Shown piece by piece: positions 4,130 through 54,932 of a DNA stretch of 64,000 nt; position 1 is the first letter of the stretch; each line of letters opens with the position of its first letter. Both the position numbers and the translations under genes were made by a program. Origin of the DNA: Octopus sinensis (lineage: Eukaryota); NCBI RefSeq assembly GCF_006345805.1, contig NC_043001.1, positions 86,986,001-87,050,000 of the forward strand, written 5' to 3'. A model generated the notes under the pieces. That model worked only from the letters and a program-made list of their open reading frames with translations, made no database searches and was not told the origin of the DNA.

Positions 4130-4390
4130 TTAGCCAATCCAACTCACAAAACCAAGTACACCAATTACTATTGGTATAAATGTGAATTTATAATCTGAGT
4201 AAAGAAGCTGAAGGTTTTGAAGCAGTTTTCCAGTTATCCTTTTTCTCTTTGATTTTCAAAGAGATATTCACATCAGCAAGACAGCTGACTTCTATGATGA
4301 TACATACTTTTTTATTGTCAGTCCCAAACAATATACAACCTGCTGTTTACACTTGATAAAATCTTAATGGGAATGTTCCACTTATCTTCT
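4130..4390 (-). mobile_element. R4/Dong-like (RLE) LINE endonuclease remnant
   Basis: Minus strand translates IIEVSCLADVNISLKIKEKKDN, resembling the RLE motif IIEVSCPxDxNxxxKxxEK. Confidence 0.5.
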
Positions 4391-6534: not shown

Positions 6535-7500
6535 ATCATCATTCATCATCATCATTCATTTAGCGTCCGTTTTCCATGCTAGCATGGGTGGACGGTTCAA
6601 CTGGGGTCTGGGGAGCCCGAAGGCTGCACCAGGCCAGTCAGATCTGGCAGTGTTTCTACAGCTGGATGCCCTTCCTAACGCCAACCACTCCAAGAGTGTA
6701 GTGGGTGATTTTATGTGCCACCGACACAGGTGCCAGACGAGGCTGGCGAACGGCCACGCTCTCAGATGGTGTTTTTATGTGCCACCGACACAGTGCCAGA
6801 CGAGGCTGGCAGACGGCCACGCTCGGATGGTGTTTTTTATGTGCCAGACACAGGTGCCAGATGAGGCTGGCGAACGGCCACGATCGGATGGTTGTTTACG
6901 TGCCCGCAGCACGGAGGCCAGTCGATGCGGTACTGGCTACGGCCACGTTCGGATGGTTTTCTTGTGTGCCACCGGCACTGGTACCACAAAGATACAAATT
7001 CCATTGATGTTCATCTATTTTGATTTGATTTGATTTGATTTTCACTGCCTCAACAGGTCTTCACAAGTGTCACAAGAAGGAAGGTATGCACAGGTGGACT
7101 GACTACGTCCCAGGTAGCGGCCACGGGTTATGGCCTGACTAGTCTTGCCGGGTCTTCAGATGGTGTTTTTATGGCCAACCGACACAGGTGCCAGATGAGG
7201 CTGGCGAACGGCCACAATGATGGTGTTGTTTGTTACTTGCCCACAGCACGGAGGCCAGTCGATGCGGTACTGGCTACCGCCACGTTTGGATAGTTTTCTT
7301 GTGTGCCACCGGCACTGGTACCATAAAGATAAAATTCCATTGATGTTCATCTATTTTGATTTGTTTTGATTTGATTTGATTTGATTTTCACTTGCCTCAA
7401 CAGGTCTTCACAAGTGTCACAAGAAGGAAGGAAGGTATGCATAGGTGGACTGACTACATCCCAGGTAGGGGCCACGGGTTATGGCCTGACTAGTCTTGCC
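6535..7500 (-). mobile_element. RTE-X LINE 3'UTR copy with internal tandem duplication
   Basis: Same 3'UTR as 4983-5560; segment ~6840-7155 is repeated at ~7156-7500. Confidence 0.85.
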
Positions 7501-15159: not shown

Positions 15160-15365
15160 AATCCAAACAAGAACAAGCAAGAAAAAAGAACAGCGTGAGG
15201 ATGTGGAACAAGTAATGTGTTATTGGACGCTCAGGAAAGGAAAGAAAAAAAAGAGGACTTCATGTTTCGAGTGGAGCTCTTCATCAGAAATATAGAAAAT
15301 GTCCAAAGAAAGGAAGATGGAGAAAGAAAATCGCCAATGATACTCACGCAATCACATATTGAAAT
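15160..15365 (-). mobile_element. Penelope-like pLTR fragment with hammerhead-like motif (15257-15291)
   Basis: Minus strand ATTT CTGATGA A GAG ctcca CTC GAAA CA TG AAGT; adjacent to (TA)n. Confidence 0.65.
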
Positions 15366-30801: not shown

Positions 30802-31160
30802 ACATGTCATATAATGTTATGGATTGGGTCTGCCCCTCTGGCAAAACTCAGACATGTCATGTAATGTTATGGATTGCCTCTGCCCCTCTGGCGAATCTAC
30901 AACATCTCATGTAATGTTATGGATTCCGCCTGCCCCTCTGGCGAATCCCTCACATGTCATCTAATGTTATGGATTAGGTCTGCCCCTCTGGCGAATGCCT
31001 GACATGTCATGTAATATTATGGATTAGGTCTGCCCCTCTGGCGAATCTCCGACATGCCATGCAATGTTATGGGTTGGGTCTGCCCTCTGGCTAATCTGAC
31101 ATGTCATGTAATGTTATGGGTTGGCCCTGCCCCTCTGGCGAATCCTACATGTCATGTAAT
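30802..31160. repeat. Tandem array of ~50-bp units, 7 copies plus a partial
   Basis: Consensus acatgtcatgtaatgttatggattNNNNctgcccctctggcgaatNNNNN. Confidence 0.95.
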
Positions 31161-31732
31161 GTGTTTGGAGTGATCACTAGTAATGGTAACGTTATGCCAC
31201 CATTAATCTTCCCACATGGTCTCACACTCAACATGCAGGCCTACATCAAGTGCCTGGAGGAGGTAGTGCTACATTGGATCAAGAGGGTGGCTGCTGGACC
31301 CTATGTCTCGAAACAGGACTCTGCAACATGTCACACAAACAGAAGAACCCAGTCATGGCTGTCAGACAATTTCTGCAACCACATCACCCCTAACAACTGG
31401 CCACCTAACTCCCCAGACTGAAACCCCCTTGATTATTATGAGTTGAGCGAGAGACCAACAGAACTCCTTGTAACACCAATGATGAAGTGAAGGCAAGGAT
31501 TATGGCAGCATTCACCAACTTAAACAAGGAGACCATCCAGAAGAGTTGCAGGAGGTTCCGAAGTTGTATGAAGGCCATGGTTGAAGCCAATGGCGATTTT
31601 ATTGAATAAATTTACTCTTTAGTATTTCAAGATACTTTTATGTAATTTTGGTAAATATATCTGTTAAAATGCGATGTCAGTGTTATTTTCAGTTTTGTGT
31701 AAATTTGACAACAGTATATTCACCGCACCCTG
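31158..31732 (+). mobile_element. 3' half of a DD37D (maT-type) Tc1/mariner transposon
   Basis: VFGVITSNG..QDSATCH..WPPNSPD*NPLDYY with 37 residues between the 2nd and 3rd Asp; right end caccgcaccctg|TA. Confidence 0.85.
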
Positions 31733-32634
31733 TATATACGCATACATACACATACACACACACATATACACATACACACACACACATATACACATACACA
31801 TATATACACACACACATATATAGTCCTGTGTGTATATGTATTTGTGAATGATTTGATGTGTTCAGTAAATTTCTGTATATCTGTGAGTTCTTTAAGGTTT
31901 ATTTTTAAAATTTATCACTATAATGAAAGAACCAGTTTCCAAGAAACAAGGCTCTTTCATTGGAATTTAGACATCAGTTAAGTAACCATGTAGATTTAGA
32001 TGTAAATATGTATATAAACATGTATGTATGTATGTATGTATGTATGTATGTATGTATGTATGTATGTATGTATGTATGTATGTATGTATGTATGTATGCA
32101 TGCATGTATGTATGTGCGTTTATTCATGCATGCATGTATTTATTTATATATGTATGTTTATATTTATGAATGTATTCATGAATATATGTATGTATGTATG
32201 TATATGTATGTGTGCATGAATGTATGTGCGTTTATTCATGCATGTATTAATTCATGTATATTTATATTTATGAATGTATTTATGAACGTGTTTGTGTGTG
32301 TGTGTGTATGTATTTGTGTGTGTGTATGTGTGTGTGTATTTCTGGCTTTATTTTTCAAATTTCTTAGTGATAGAGAACAACCAGTTTCTAGTCCAGAGAC
32401 AAGACTCTTTCATTGGAATTTAGACATCAGTAAAGTAGTTATGTATGTATGAATGTATGTTTGTATGTATACATGTATGAGCATATATCTATATCTGTGC
32501 ATGTATGTACATGCACCATCTTTATATATTAGAATTCTTCCTCAAAGGAAGAAACTTGTTTCCAACAAAGAAATAAACTTGCATTACTGGAATTTAGATA
32601 ACAGCAACAATAATTTTTACCTTTTAAGTTAATA

Positions 32635-32833
32635 TCTCTTTTACTTGTTTCAGTCATTTGACTGTGGCCATGCTGGAGCACCAATCGACCCCAGGACTTA
32701 TTCTTTGTAAGCCTAGTACTTATTCTATCAATCTCTTTTGCCGAACCGCTAAGTTACGGGGACGTAAACACACCAGCATTGGTTGTCAAGTGATGTTGGG
32801 TGGGGACAAACACAGACACACAAACATACACAC

Positions 32834-32881
<48 letters not shown>

Positions 32882-33140
32882 CATATATATGACGGGCTTC
32901 TTTCAATTTCTGACAAACACAGACGCACAAACATACACACACACACACACACACACATGTATATATATACATATATACGACGAGCATCTTTCAGTTTCTG
33001 TCTTTCAAATCCACTCACAAGGCTTTGGTCGGCCCGAGGCTATAGTAGAAGACACTTGCCTAAGGTGCCATGCAGTGGGACTGAACTCGAAACCATGTGA
33101 TTTGTAAGCAAACTACTTACCACACAGCCACTTCTACGCC
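32635..33140 (-). mobile_element. SINE family A with a duplicated internal segment
   Basis: Family A head and tail motifs. Confidence 0.8.
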
Positions 33141-33149
33141 TATATTACA

Positions 33150-34050
33150 CCTATATCTACAAATTTTTTATGGTGTTAAGAGCTAGTACTGAAAGTTACA
33201 ATGTTTCATATATGAATATGTTTATGTAAATGATGAGATCAAAGACAGAAAAAGGTAATGGGTGTATATGTATATTTCAAGGGTTATTGCTCTTTCATTT
33301 GCACCACTTCCAGCCCGGCAATTCATTGTGGACAGCTGATGGGCTGGATGTGGTGCTGATAAAAGAGCAATATCTCTCGAAATATGTATATACACCTTTT
33401 ACTTATTTTTTCTATCTTCCATCACACTGTTTACATAAAGGTATTTGTATACAAAACATCATAACTTTTAATGCTGGCTCTGAACTTTGTACAAAATCTA
33501 TAGAGATAAACTTAAAAATGAAAACAATGCACTGCTAACACTAAAGTAAGATGCAATAATGATTTGTAAATCTTTAATATACTTGCTAACATATTATGGC
33601 TTCAAAACGAAGTACTGTATCCTTGCTAGCAAATAAATATTTATACACCAGTTTCCAGGAATGTGTTAAATGTGTAAATTGGTTTATCCACATTTATTTT
33701 CCCTGCTAAACTTAGGTATTCAAGCAATTTGTTCATGAATTGTTGATGGGTTGGATTGGTGCTGATGAAAGAGCTATAACTCTCGAAATATGCATATACA
33801 CCTATTACCTATTTTTTCTGTCTTCAGTCCTATTGTTTACATAGGCACATTTTTATACTAACCATTATAATAACTTTCAGTGTTGGCTCTGAACTCTATT
33901 GAAAATTTATAGAGCTAAACTTAAAAATGAAAACAATGCACTCTAATACAAAAATAAGACATAATGTCAACCTGTAAACCTCTAATATACTAGATAGTAT
34001 ATTATGGTTACACAATGAAAATTTGTCTCCTTGTTAGCAATTAATAGTTT
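33150..34050. mobile_element. Hammerhead-bearing repeat cluster (one inverted partial unit + two tandem ~406-bp units); Penelope pLTR / retrozyme-like
   Basis: Motifs at 33352-33396 (+), 33758-33802 (+) and ~33260-33305 (-), each followed by homologous unit sequence. Confidence 0.75.
33758..33802 (+). ncRNA. Type I hammerhead ribozyme motif with intact core
   Basis: GGTG CTGATGA A AGAG ctataa CTCT C GAAA TATGCATA T A CACC: stem I GGUG/CACC, palindromic stem III, AUA cleavage triplet. Confidence 0.75.
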
Positions 34051-34149
34051 TTATATAGCAAACTTTAGGGAAGCCTTGCATATCTTTACTGTTCTACTTA
34101 GAGACTGCATCTATAAAGCATGTATTTGTCAGGCTCTTTCTTTGCTCCC

Positions 34150-35110
34150 AAAATCCTAGCCTTTCAAGATTGTCACTTAGACATTTACTAACGTAACCAA
34201 GTGCACTAATAGTTATTAGTATAAATATGAATTTATAATCAGAGTAGAATTTCAGGGTTTAAGCAATTATCCACAAATATTCACCTTTTCTCTAATTTTG
34301 GATCAGACATTTACCCCTGCACTGAAGCTAACCTCTATGAGTACATGATTTTTCTTTTCTCACCCACATAAGTATGTCGGGACTGTTACATTCACATTTG
34401 ATAGAAGTTTTAATGGGCATATTCCACTAATATATTTGTGTTGATATGTATATATTTAACGGAAGAGATGTTGCTTAAATTTATCCCAGGGCAGTCTTTT
34501 CTACAGGTGGTATCATACATTGTTTTAGCAACAATATCATATTGCATATATGATGCAATATATATTGCATCATATAACTTGATGACATTTTTGGGTGGCT
34601 GTTGATTACATGTTATATCTTCCACAGCAGTGTGACATAATCAACATTTGTGATTGCATCCTAGGAGCTTAATGGCTTTGCCGTCCCATTTGTTCATGAG
34701 ATATTTTGTAGCAATCTCTTGTGCGGTAGTGACCATGAGTCCAGGAGATGGTACACTTCATGTTGATATTGTCATCTGCTTCAAGTTTACAGAACACATA
34801 ACTATGCATTACCTTTTTAAGATATGACCTTTGATGCCAAGATTTTGAGTTTAAGAAACAGATACTTCCCCATGTTTAATTGTTAGATATGAAGATTTCT
34901 TTTGGTCAAACACCATTCTATATCAACAGAAAATACTGAAATTTTCAGCATTGTAAATATTTTGTACATAGATTTTTAGATCATCCACAAAGAAATTATG
35001 AGTAATATTAGTGTCTCTTGATGTTGTAGATCCTAGGACATAGTCACACAGCCAGTGGATTTTCATTAAAGAAATGACAATAAATCTAATGCCAAATAAA
35101 CAGAAATACA
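34150..35110 (-). mobile_element. Decayed R4/Dong-like RLE non-LTR retrotransposon
   Basis: ITHNFFVDDLKIY (RT catalytic motif) and EDIT..YDIVAKTMY (CCHC/RHD region remnant). Confidence 0.7.
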
Positions 35111-42465: not shown

Positions 42466-42721
42466 GGCACGTAAAATGCACCAATCCGACCGTGGCCGTT
42501 GCCAGCCTCGCCTGGCACCTGTGCAGGTGGCACGTAAAAAGCACCCACTACACTCACGGAGTGGTTGGCGTTAGGAAGGGCATCCAGCTGTAGAAACATT
42601 GCCAGATAAGACTGGAGCCTGGGGCAGCCTTCTGGCTTCCCAGATCCCCGGTCGAACCGTCCAACTCATGCTAGCATGGAGAACGGACGTTAAACGATGA
42701 TGATGATGATGATGATGATGA
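42466..42721 (+). mobile_element. RTE-X 3' tail in (TA)n, next to an RT C-terminal fragment (42335-42440, -)
   Basis: Family tail; VEGMCGRGRPRKMWDEV on the minus strand. Confidence 0.85.
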
Positions 42722-42725
42722 TATA

Positions 42726-42756
<31 letters not shown>

Positions 42757-42774
42757 GTGTGTGTGTGTGTGTGT

Positions 42775-43090
42775 TCAGGTGGGGGGCTCCGATAGGTGTC
42801 TCAGGGTGTAGAGTTCCTGCCATCCTGAGCTAGCTTTCCACATTTCTTAAAAATTGTGGTAGAGGCCTTCATCTTGGGACCAGTCATGTCTAGAAACTGA
42901 AGTTGGGGGTAAGCAAAGGCATGCTCCCTGATGAAAATCCAGCTCCAAAAATGCTTCATGATAGCAAAGGAGAATAGGCACTGGCCAGCCAAAAGGTTGG
43001 GGTGGGCTGCACCAGCTTACCTCGGTTGCTATGGCATTGAGGTAGATCCAGCAACCACTGATAATGTGAACAAAACCCAGACTTAAAACA

Positions 43091-43135
<45 letters not shown>

Positions 43136-43148
43136 AATGATGATGATG

Positions 43149-43185
<37 letters not shown>

Positions 43186-43535
43186 ATACATATATATATA
43201 TGTGTGTGTGTGTGTGTGTTCAGGTGGGGGGCTCCGATAGGTGTCTCAGGGTGTAGAGTTCCTGCCATCCTGAGCTAGCTTTCCACATTTCTTAAAAATT
43301 GTGGTAGAGGCCTTCATCTTGGGACCAGTCATGTCTAGAAACTGAAGTTGGGGGTAAGCAAAGGCATGCTCCCTGATGAAAATCCAGCTCCAAAAATGCT
43401 TCATGATAGCAAAGGAGAATAGGCACTGGCCAGCCAAAAGGTTGGGGTGGGCTGCACCAGCTTACCTCGGTTGCTATGGCATTGAGGTAGATCCAGCAAC
43501 CACTGATAATGTGAACAAAACCCAGACTTAAAACA

Positions 43536-43580
<45 letters not shown>

Positions 43581-43620
43581 AATGATGATGATGATATATA
43601 TATATATATATATATATATA
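42775..43620. repeat. Tandem duplication, 445-bp period
   Basis: Unique parts 42775-43094 and 43220-43539 appear identical (identical ORFs 42801-42992 and 43246-43437). Confidence 0.95.
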
Positions 43621-54516: not shown

Positions 54517-54657
54517 TACATTATTTACATTTGACGGATATTTGTCCTCATCTTGTTTGTTGTTAACACAACATTTCGGCTGATATACCCTCCAGCCTTC
54601 TTCAGGTGTCTTGGGGAGATTTCGAACCTATGTTCTCATTCCTAAGGTATTTTTCAA

Positions 54658-54783: not shown

Positions 54784-54932
54784 CAACAGCAACAGCGAAA
54801 AATACTTCAGGAATGAGAACCCAGGTTCGAAATTTCCTCAAGATGCTTGAAGAAGGCTGGAGGGTATATAAGCCAAAACGTGTTAACAACAAACAAGGTG
54901 AGGACAAATATCCATCAAATGTAAATAATGTA
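54517..54932. mobile_element. Inverted Penelope-like pLTR pair, hammerhead-like motif in each arm
   Basis: ~140-bp arms around (ATT)n/(AAT)n; minus 54565-54610 reads GACAC CTGAAGA A GGCTG gagggtatat CAGCC GAAA TG TT GTGTT. Confidence 0.75.

Follow-up and report, generated by a model that had tools for sequence, protein, structure and literature searches.

The hammerhead-bearing repeat around positions 33150 to 34046 of the window, i.e., the whole 64,000-nucleotide stretch of Octopus sinensis DNA analyzed here (contig NC_043001.1, 86,986,001 to 87,050,000), is best explained as a decayed copy of a dispersed non-coding 407-nt repeat, likely a former retrozyme whose RNA was self-cleaving and probably circularizing, and which was likely copied by a Penelope-like reverse transcriptase (RT)/endonuclease. 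We regard this explanation as moderately probable when taken as a whole. A Penelope mobilizer for the family is highly likely, because its arms end at two fixed points, as do those of an autonomous Penelope-like family of the same genome and, if such a mobilizer is granted, a circular template is reasonably probable. The initial annotation had set a retrozyme against a Penelope pLTR as alternatives; here the two are joined rather than opposed, because the unit has no ORF and yet its copies end like Penelope insertions.

Organization of the locus

Positions within the unit are counted from window position 33318, which is unit position 1. The locus consists of an inverted, 5'-truncated arm (33150–33321, minus strand, unit positions 20–194) placed head-to-head with a direct arm of 1.8 units (33318–34046, plus strand, period 406), and the two arms share about 4 nt at the junction. 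When compared with the family profile, the direct arm is continuous over 732 nt, running from unit position 1 to 407 and again from 1 to about 322. It is made of unit A, one full 406-nt unit (33318–33723), and unit B (33724–34046), which covers unit positions 1–322 and terminates at the fixed end called E2 below. Self-comparison of the window aligns 33337–33636 with 33744–34044 at 78.8% identity over 306 nt and a spacing of 406, and relaxed scoring gives 77% over 339 nt. The two diverged direct units described initially are therefore confirmed in their spacing and pairing, although the second is only partial, and the inverted partial unit head-to-head with the first is also confirmed and holds a third, broken hammerhead of its own.

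Judging from the letters, the insertion probably starts near 32620, a nested high-copy SINE-like repeat (32632–33145, probably in two pieces, not part of the element, and recognized from a BLAST pile-up over 111 loci) having split off the last ten bases of the inverted arm. This repeat, of which six further copies occur elsewhere in the window, is presumably of the SINE type. The displaced bases are likely those at 32621–32630 (minus strand, unit 195–204), which would carry the fixed end E1, as suggested by a match to the E1 end motif over these 10 letters only. An 11-nt direct repeat with one mismatch can be read on both sides of the whole insertion: the likely left target-site duplication lies at 32609–32619 and the likely right one at 34043–34053 (both plus strand, 10 of 11 letters shared), the latter overlapping the last 4 nt of the direct arm. 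The window copy follows the end rule of the family, with one E1 arm and one E2 arm.

The only stop-to-stop frame touching the element spans 33230–33538 (102 aa), and none of at least 60 aa occurs in 33540–34400. Among 150 of the 186 Tandem Repeats Finder rows, none was for the element. The Rfam search proposed for detecting the hammerhead gave 0 matches in the window at the gathering threshold and 17 sub-threshold matches at E ≤ 10; no hammerhead family was among them, and the top three, at the inverted junction, were miRNA-hairpin models.

Several other repeats were noticed in the window. To the right of the element, 34187–34353 is a separate dispersed repeat that matches 4142–4312 at 70% and has numerous relatives among the contigs of other runs. 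At 42721–43619, two 445-bp units stand in tandem at 99% identity, reflecting either a very recent duplication or an assembly artifact, while a 50-bp tandem array of 7.3 copies lies at 30802–31162 and a nested 61/337-bp tandem repeat at 6704–7500.

The 407-nt family

DNA and pattern searches of the 2.72-Gb genome returned 145 distinct loci with 243 arms, so that the copy-number check suggested at the outset revealed a dispersed family. Some loci are duplicated in the assembly, as in the case of L079, L084, and L085 (contigs C9478, C9531, and C9324), which carry the same insertion, and such loci were merged ahead of counting. A 17-nt word spanning stem III and stem I occurs 256 times in the genome, versus 2 for the reversed control, and is present in exact form in 23 of 89 rows chosen without regard to the hammerhead; from these numbers, hammerhead-bearing arms are roughly estimated at 1,000, and probably more because the sample favors well-kept copies.

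The unit is 407 nt long with a GC content of 35%, and the longest open frame on the circle of majority letters is 54 aa, in agreement with the initial reading that the element has no ORF. It is circularly permuted, with a seamless 407-to-1 junction and 5' ends spread all round the unit. Arms exceed one unit in 38 of 176 cases and two units in 2, the longest being 858 nt (2.1 units), and 13 of the 176 contain two cut sites. Long head-to-tail arrays were not found among the arms examined, none of which exceeds 2.1 units, in an assembly that could lack arrays.

Regarding the age of the family, the identity of the arms to the majority letters has a median of 82.5% and a maximum of 91.8%, and no young copies surfaced: the best 40 of 1,737 candidates for one well-preserved copy were 78–83% identical to it, itself excepted. 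Intact 31-mers of the family occur 24 and 6 times in the genome. The window locus, together with its right flank, is also present in contigs of a second organism (run X3) at about 98% identity (4 differences in 302 nt; 14 differences and 4 gaps in 787 nt), and the window insertion is therefore far older than the split between the two. As far as sampled, the family is apparently old and inactive in this assembly.

Each insertion derives from a single template lineage. Subfamily assignments agree within a locus in 34 of 34 same-arm pairs and 43 of 46 opposite-arm pairs, and the sharing of non-majority letters is 0.026 within a locus versus 0.013 between loci (maximum 0.016 in 300 draws).

Concerning transcription, neither an A box nor a B box pattern of Pol III was found in the unit, the CCAAT/ATTGG pair present at unit 361–375 is conserved no more than the background, and a TATA-like run at unit 402–407 is only suggestive as a promoter element. 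Contigs of two runs presumed to be RNA cover the family sequence thinly; contigs of this kind are not informative about level, ends, or circles.

The hammerhead ribozyme

The majority hammerhead is of type I and has the full CUGANGA / GAAA / UH core. Its stem I has a 4-bp inner helix, a bulged region, and then a long helix; stem II has 5 bp and a 6-nt loop; and stem III is a short, perfect 10-nt palindrome (self-duplex −9.5 kcal/mol) followed by an AUA triplet. By the definitions of PMC4209133, the minimal hammerhead of animal Penelopes has a short stem I, an ill-defined loop 1, an extra base after position 9, and a G10.1–C11.1 pair. The family hammerhead is canonical-sized, not minimal as first described, because its stem I is long and bulged and its stem II has 5 bp with a 6-nt loop. 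In addition, the extra base after position 9 is absent from it, and A10.1–U11.1 is found in 109 of the 138 rows listed, where G–C is usual. The first pair of stem I is an A·C mismatch in 35 of about 130 rows.

The three hammerheads of the window differ in their state of preservation. The two motifs annotated at 33352–33396 (with G8>A) and 33758–33802 (with an intact core) do stand there, each within a longer domain. The unit A hammerhead (33338–33407, plus strand) has an extended stem I, a cut position at 33392/33393, a broken stem III palindrome, and the G8>A change at 33361, at a position required for hammerhead cleavage. That of unit B (33745–33813, plus strand; AUA triplet; cut position 33798/33799) is the only one in the window with all 11 core positions intact, and it shows an A·C mismatch at 10.1–11.1, one base fewer in loop 1, and one change in loop 2. 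The third, in the inverted arm (33261–33305, minus strand), has a core broken by U4>A and G5>A.

At the family level, the core is well preserved. Its 11 positions are conserved at 0.95 versus 0.86 for base-matched positions elsewhere in the unit, with 0 of 20,000 draws as high, across 178 rows, none of which was chosen by hammerhead patterns. The family consensus thus keeps the CUGANGA/GAAA motifs, and the difference indicates that the source lineages varied outside the core and not in it; this pattern suggests that the ribozyme core was kept under selection in these lineages. All the core letters are retained in 50 of 84 unselected copies. The active fold of the hammerhead lies 6.6–8.1 kcal/mol above the minimum-energy fold.

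Predicted folding and covariation

The majority circle folds at z −7.1 versus 60 shuffles, with 68% of its bases paired, and most of this strength comes from a rod at unit 1–114 (z −7.7) and from 204–322 (z −3.7); reverse complements fold well too. A single long hairpin is predicted for the 120 nt that separate the fixed ends (unit 229–311 in the majority-circle fold; 33545–33627 in the window, with a second copy at 33953–34035, both plus strand); it would leave E1 in an A-rich stretch without pairing and E2 close to a small loop.

In an all-pairs covariation scan, the two strongest pairs, 233–307 within the long hairpin and 48–61, both fall in predicted helices, and both mark one subfamily branch, so that they represent two changes on one lineage. 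One of these compensatory pairs lies in stem II (p 2e-7). Covariation over the whole hammerhead is not above shuffles (42/500 and 187/500 shuffles for two stem I registers): the first stem I register was replaced by the one in the fold of the circle, and neither passes the shuffle control. RNAalifold on 61 copies predicted no pairs.

Fixed ends, paired arms, and target sites

The 5' ends of the arms are scattered, whereas 165 of the 243 arms terminate at two fixed sites about 120 nt apart. Specifically, 87 end at unit 192–213 (E1, mode 203), 78 at 316–337 (E2, mode 322), and 78 elsewhere, some of these last being visibly cut by later insertions. Each window of end positions takes up 5.4% of the unit and was set on the first 81 loci. 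Both were borne out by a further 34 loci, which had been selected through words lying outside the hammerhead and regardless of it (46 of 67 arms and 8 of 8 pairs).

The arms are often paired head-to-head. There are 60 such pairs, and among the 29 with both ends classed, 27 combine one E1 with one E2; in the first 111 loci alone this holds for 19 of 21 (p 9e-5). Tail-to-tail pairs number 0 in the first 111 loci and 1 in the second set, and a search for a hidden second arm at 42 single-arm loci gave only 1 clear and 1 weak case. At the head-to-head junctions, 25 of 45 overlap by 1–15 nt.

The DNA next to the ends is 72–74% AT, versus 65% further out, and carries duplication-like repeats. Their mean best match is 8.1/11 in 26 pairs versus 6.9 for swapped flanks (0 of 2,000 shuffles as high), and 10 of the 26 pairs reach a match of at least 9/11 versus 11% expected, as decayed ~11-nt duplications would; this family-wide test excluded the window locus, and shared microsatellite flanks may inflate the score. 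As for the hammerhead cut site, a set of 44 arms sampled away from the hammerhead includes 20 that read through it and 2 that start within 7 nt of it, with no excess. The pile-up of 5' ends there that would be a sign of cleaved linear templates was not found, and indels at the cut site occur at the background rate.

Penelope-like elements of the same genome

The genome contains 150 scored GIY-YIG matches, including intact RT plus GIY-YIG elements with ORFs of 775–781 aa. One of these, L183 (G000:C1:207473500-207481500), is a young Penelope-like element with a 781-aa RT plus GIY-YIG ORF, two terminal repeats 5,935 nt apart that are 98.9% identical and each contain a type I hammerhead, and a 3' region rich in CCAAT-like and TGACGT motifs. 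Copies of its terminal repeat end at 260–266 (12 of 56 arms) or at 335–345 (39 of 56), a cluster that is partly set by the query because this long end is the end of the query's own copy, and the tail between them is about 79 nt. Ten of 15 head-to-head pairs have one end of each kind, two of these ten coming from overlapping loci. The order of hammerhead, first end, and second end is the same as in the 407-nt unit, and the L183 hammerhead shares with it the A10.1–U11.1 pair and the AUA triplet. Otherwise, no significant DNA likeness was found between the unit and the L183 terminal repeat, and L183 therefore serves as a control, not as a partner. Likewise, none was significant between the unit and 30 GIY-YIG loci or 10 extended ones (best E 0.06–0.08). 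A scan of viral contigs with the L183 protein confirmed nothing.

Other hammerhead-like motifs were encountered beside GIY-YIG elements of a second Penelope family (L189:5132, L186:2913, and L184:6521), whose protein (L189/L184) is 46% identical to that of L183. Within the window, a separate motif of the minimal type occupies 15244–15287 on the minus strand; it has the core, an extra A, a 3-bp stem II, and GAAAC, occurs there only once, and resembles a Penelope terminal repeat that has been truncated. Another, at 54564–54605 (minus strand), has a 5–6-bp stem II, forms a short inverted pair around an AAT microsatellite with an inverted partial copy near 54800–54930, and probably belongs to a further Penelope-type family.

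Relation to known systems

The endonuclease-bearing Penelope/Poseidon elements (PMC11167929, PMC8557442, PMC4209133) and the L183 family share several traits with the 407-nt family: arms truncated on their 5' side, incomplete tandems, an inverted 5' copy, a tail confined to one end, targets rich in AT, and two ends downstream of a type I hammerhead. According to PMC11167929, a Penelope-like protein introduces nicks into both strands of AT-rich DNA, reverse transcription begins at two sites within the RNA that lie downstream of the hammerhead, and the stretch between these sites becomes the genomic tail, said to be unique to these elements; PMC8557442 similarly describes Penelope insertions with an inverted 5' copy and a tail on one end only. 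The 407-nt unit differs from these elements in having no ORF, in closing on itself at 407 nt, in its extended rather than minimal stem I, and in lacking sequence likeness to the Penelopes sampled. In addition, its tail is about 120 nt long, compared with 30–40 nt in the literature and about 79 nt in the L183 family. In an autonomous Penelope-like element an RT plus GIY-YIG ORF lies between terminal repeats, and no piece of such an ORF adjoins an arm in the 145 distinct loci examined.

The likeness to the metazoan non-LTR retrozymes of coral, mussel, and axolotl (PMC7229834) is of a different kind, namely a canonical-sized type I hammerhead, a non-coding low-GC tandem unit, and a predicted self-paired circle. 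The unit falls within the usual bounds of about 150–450 bp, GC below 50%, and no LTR or ORF, and is close in size to the mussel retrozyme (350–390 bp), while its weak palindromic stem III recalls the axolotl type, which needs dimers (PMC7229834). The self-pairing of the monomer applies to the majority circle and not to the decayed window copy, whose cut-to-cut monomer has a fold no stronger than those of shuffled sequences (z +1.17). Unlike these retrozymes, the 407-nt family, known here from DNA alone, is old and consists of dispersed insertions whose arms measure 0.1–2.1 units, are often placed head-to-head, and terminate at two fixed 3' ends; the main text of PMC7229834 reports no end pattern.

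A third comparison is with Chlamys MRC1 (PMC8557442), which is also non-autonomous, with pLTRs, head-to-tail copies, and the need for a Penelope-type partner, and which differs in coming from green algae, in generally resembling its partner at the 3' end, and in belonging to a group mostly without hammerheads.

In the portions available, PMC7229834 and PMC7761336 name Penelope-like elements only as likely retrozyme mobilizers, and PMC8967140 reports Penelope as abundant in coleoids with no mention of ribozymes in that text. A published description of the 407-nt family, or of a retrozyme with Penelope-type ends, was not found in the partly available literature on retrozymes (main text only for PMC7229834), Penelope, and cephalopod hammerheads; repeat libraries may list the family among their unnamed repeats.

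Weighing the explanations

The two-ended insertion pattern is that of Penelope, and true Penelopes themselves mostly occur as truncated terminal pieces (PMC4209133, PMC8557442), so that one could take the copies as nothing but pLTRs belonging to an ordinary autonomous element that has lost its ORF-bearing copies to decay. This reading is improbable and largely refuted by what borders the arms. Past E2, the sequence returns to the beginning of the same unit, and the period stays constant at about 407; of eight pairs of loci with shared 5' flanks, seven join the unit at differing positions. Moreover, no Penelope ORF piece adjoins an arm in 111 plus 44 second-set loci (145 distinct) for a limited query set of 6 ORFs and 30 GIY-YIG segments of this genome, which also answers the question raised initially of a consistent attachment to such an ORF. 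One ORF fragment does lie about 1 kb from an arm (locus L076). These tblastn searches were confined to RT/GIY-YIG frames, thereby avoiding spurious frames derived from SINEs; matches of L135g residues 49–112 near arms were set aside, as they fall on the SINE-like repeat. A retrozyme moved by some other non-LTR retrotransposon, its inverted arms arising by L1-type twin priming, would explain the short overlaps at the junctions, since twin priming also yields head-to-head arms with such overlaps. In that process the internal site varies and the end is poly(A), whereas here both ends are fixed, the arms duplicate each other, and no A tail or simple repeat common to the arm ends was found; we consider it very improbable.

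The explanation of a non-autonomous mini-Penelope keeps the same mobilizer and dispenses with the circle: copies would be made from uncleaved read-through tandem transcripts or by template jumps, and the hammerhead would be passive or act elsewhere. We judge it rather unlikely, with several points in its favor. Uncleaved multimers account equally well for the read-through of the cut site, the seamless junctions, and the concordance within loci, and the genomic data are equally compatible with them and with a circle. In PMC11167929, insertion in vitro has no need of hammerhead cleavage and uncleaved RNA is the main template. The layout, down to A10.1–U11.1 and the AUA triplet, is that of the L183 terminal repeat, and non-autonomous Penelope-type elements with pLTRs are known from the Chlamys MRC1 example. 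On the other hand, the core appears to have been kept under selection and is of canonical size, in contrast to the minimal hammerheads found in most animal Penelopes (PMC4209133); the unit is strongly self-paired; and, with neither circle nor jumps, 5' truncation would shorten the copies in every round, yet two cut sites are present in 13 of 176 arms. A last possibility, that the window locus is an active source of 406-nt circular RNA today, could appeal to its one intact core (33758–33802) and to the many unselected copies with all core letters, but the chance of it is close to negligible: of the three cores this is the only one not broken, the natural monomer has no more structure than shuffled sequence, units A and B have diverged by about 21%, and the insertion is old.

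Proposed cycle

For the preferred reading, a former retrozyme copied by Penelope enzymes, the following cycle can be envisaged. A copy with two hammerheads would be transcribed and its RNA cut at both AUA sites, probably as a dimer held by the palindromic stem III, after which the 407-nt monomer would be ligated into a self-paired circle. By analogy with the published in vitro work and the control family, a dimeric Penelope protein would nick both strands of AT-rich DNA, and each strand would serve as primer at one of two sites inside the RNA, which lie about 126 and 246 nt past the cut site and flank the long hairpin. Each cDNA would then extend over a variable distance, often through the cut site and for up to 2.1 units, and the two would be joined 5' to 5', which corresponds to the DNA pattern actually seen, i.e., head-to-head arms with one end of each kind and ~11-bp duplications. 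That the circular RNA itself was the direct template of the Penelope RT, primed twice on either side of one hairpin, is a tentative proposal to which we give slightly less than an even chance.

The window copy should be unable to complete the first of these steps. At most one cut would occur and no 406-nt monomer would be released, because the cores of unit A (G8>A) and of the inverted arm (U4>A, G5>A) are broken. The tandem had been expected to release such a monomer, and this expectation is not supported here, with two of three cores broken and the fold of the natural monomer no better than shuffles. The broader notion of a non-autonomous, self-cleaving element is retained for the family, with its non-coding ~407-nt unit, conserved core, and no ORF attached, and is given up for this locus.

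Significance

The weight of these findings is tempered by the fact that the family looks extinct, that no partner was found, and that the window copy is decayed. Even so, this is an ORF-less hammerhead unit bearing the two-start-site signature, with an autonomous family of the same genome as a control. Animal retrozymes encode no enzymes themselves. Since this signature can be read straight from genomes, it offers a cheap test for every other retrozyme family, and the 407-nt unit can serve as a defined RNA in the in vitro Penelope assay already established. If the proposed explanation is true, the family would be the first genomic footprint to connect an animal retrozyme with the Penelope machinery, which has long been put forward as its mover, and its unit would amount to a portable 407-nt cis-signal by which circular RNA could be loaded onto a Penelope integrase.
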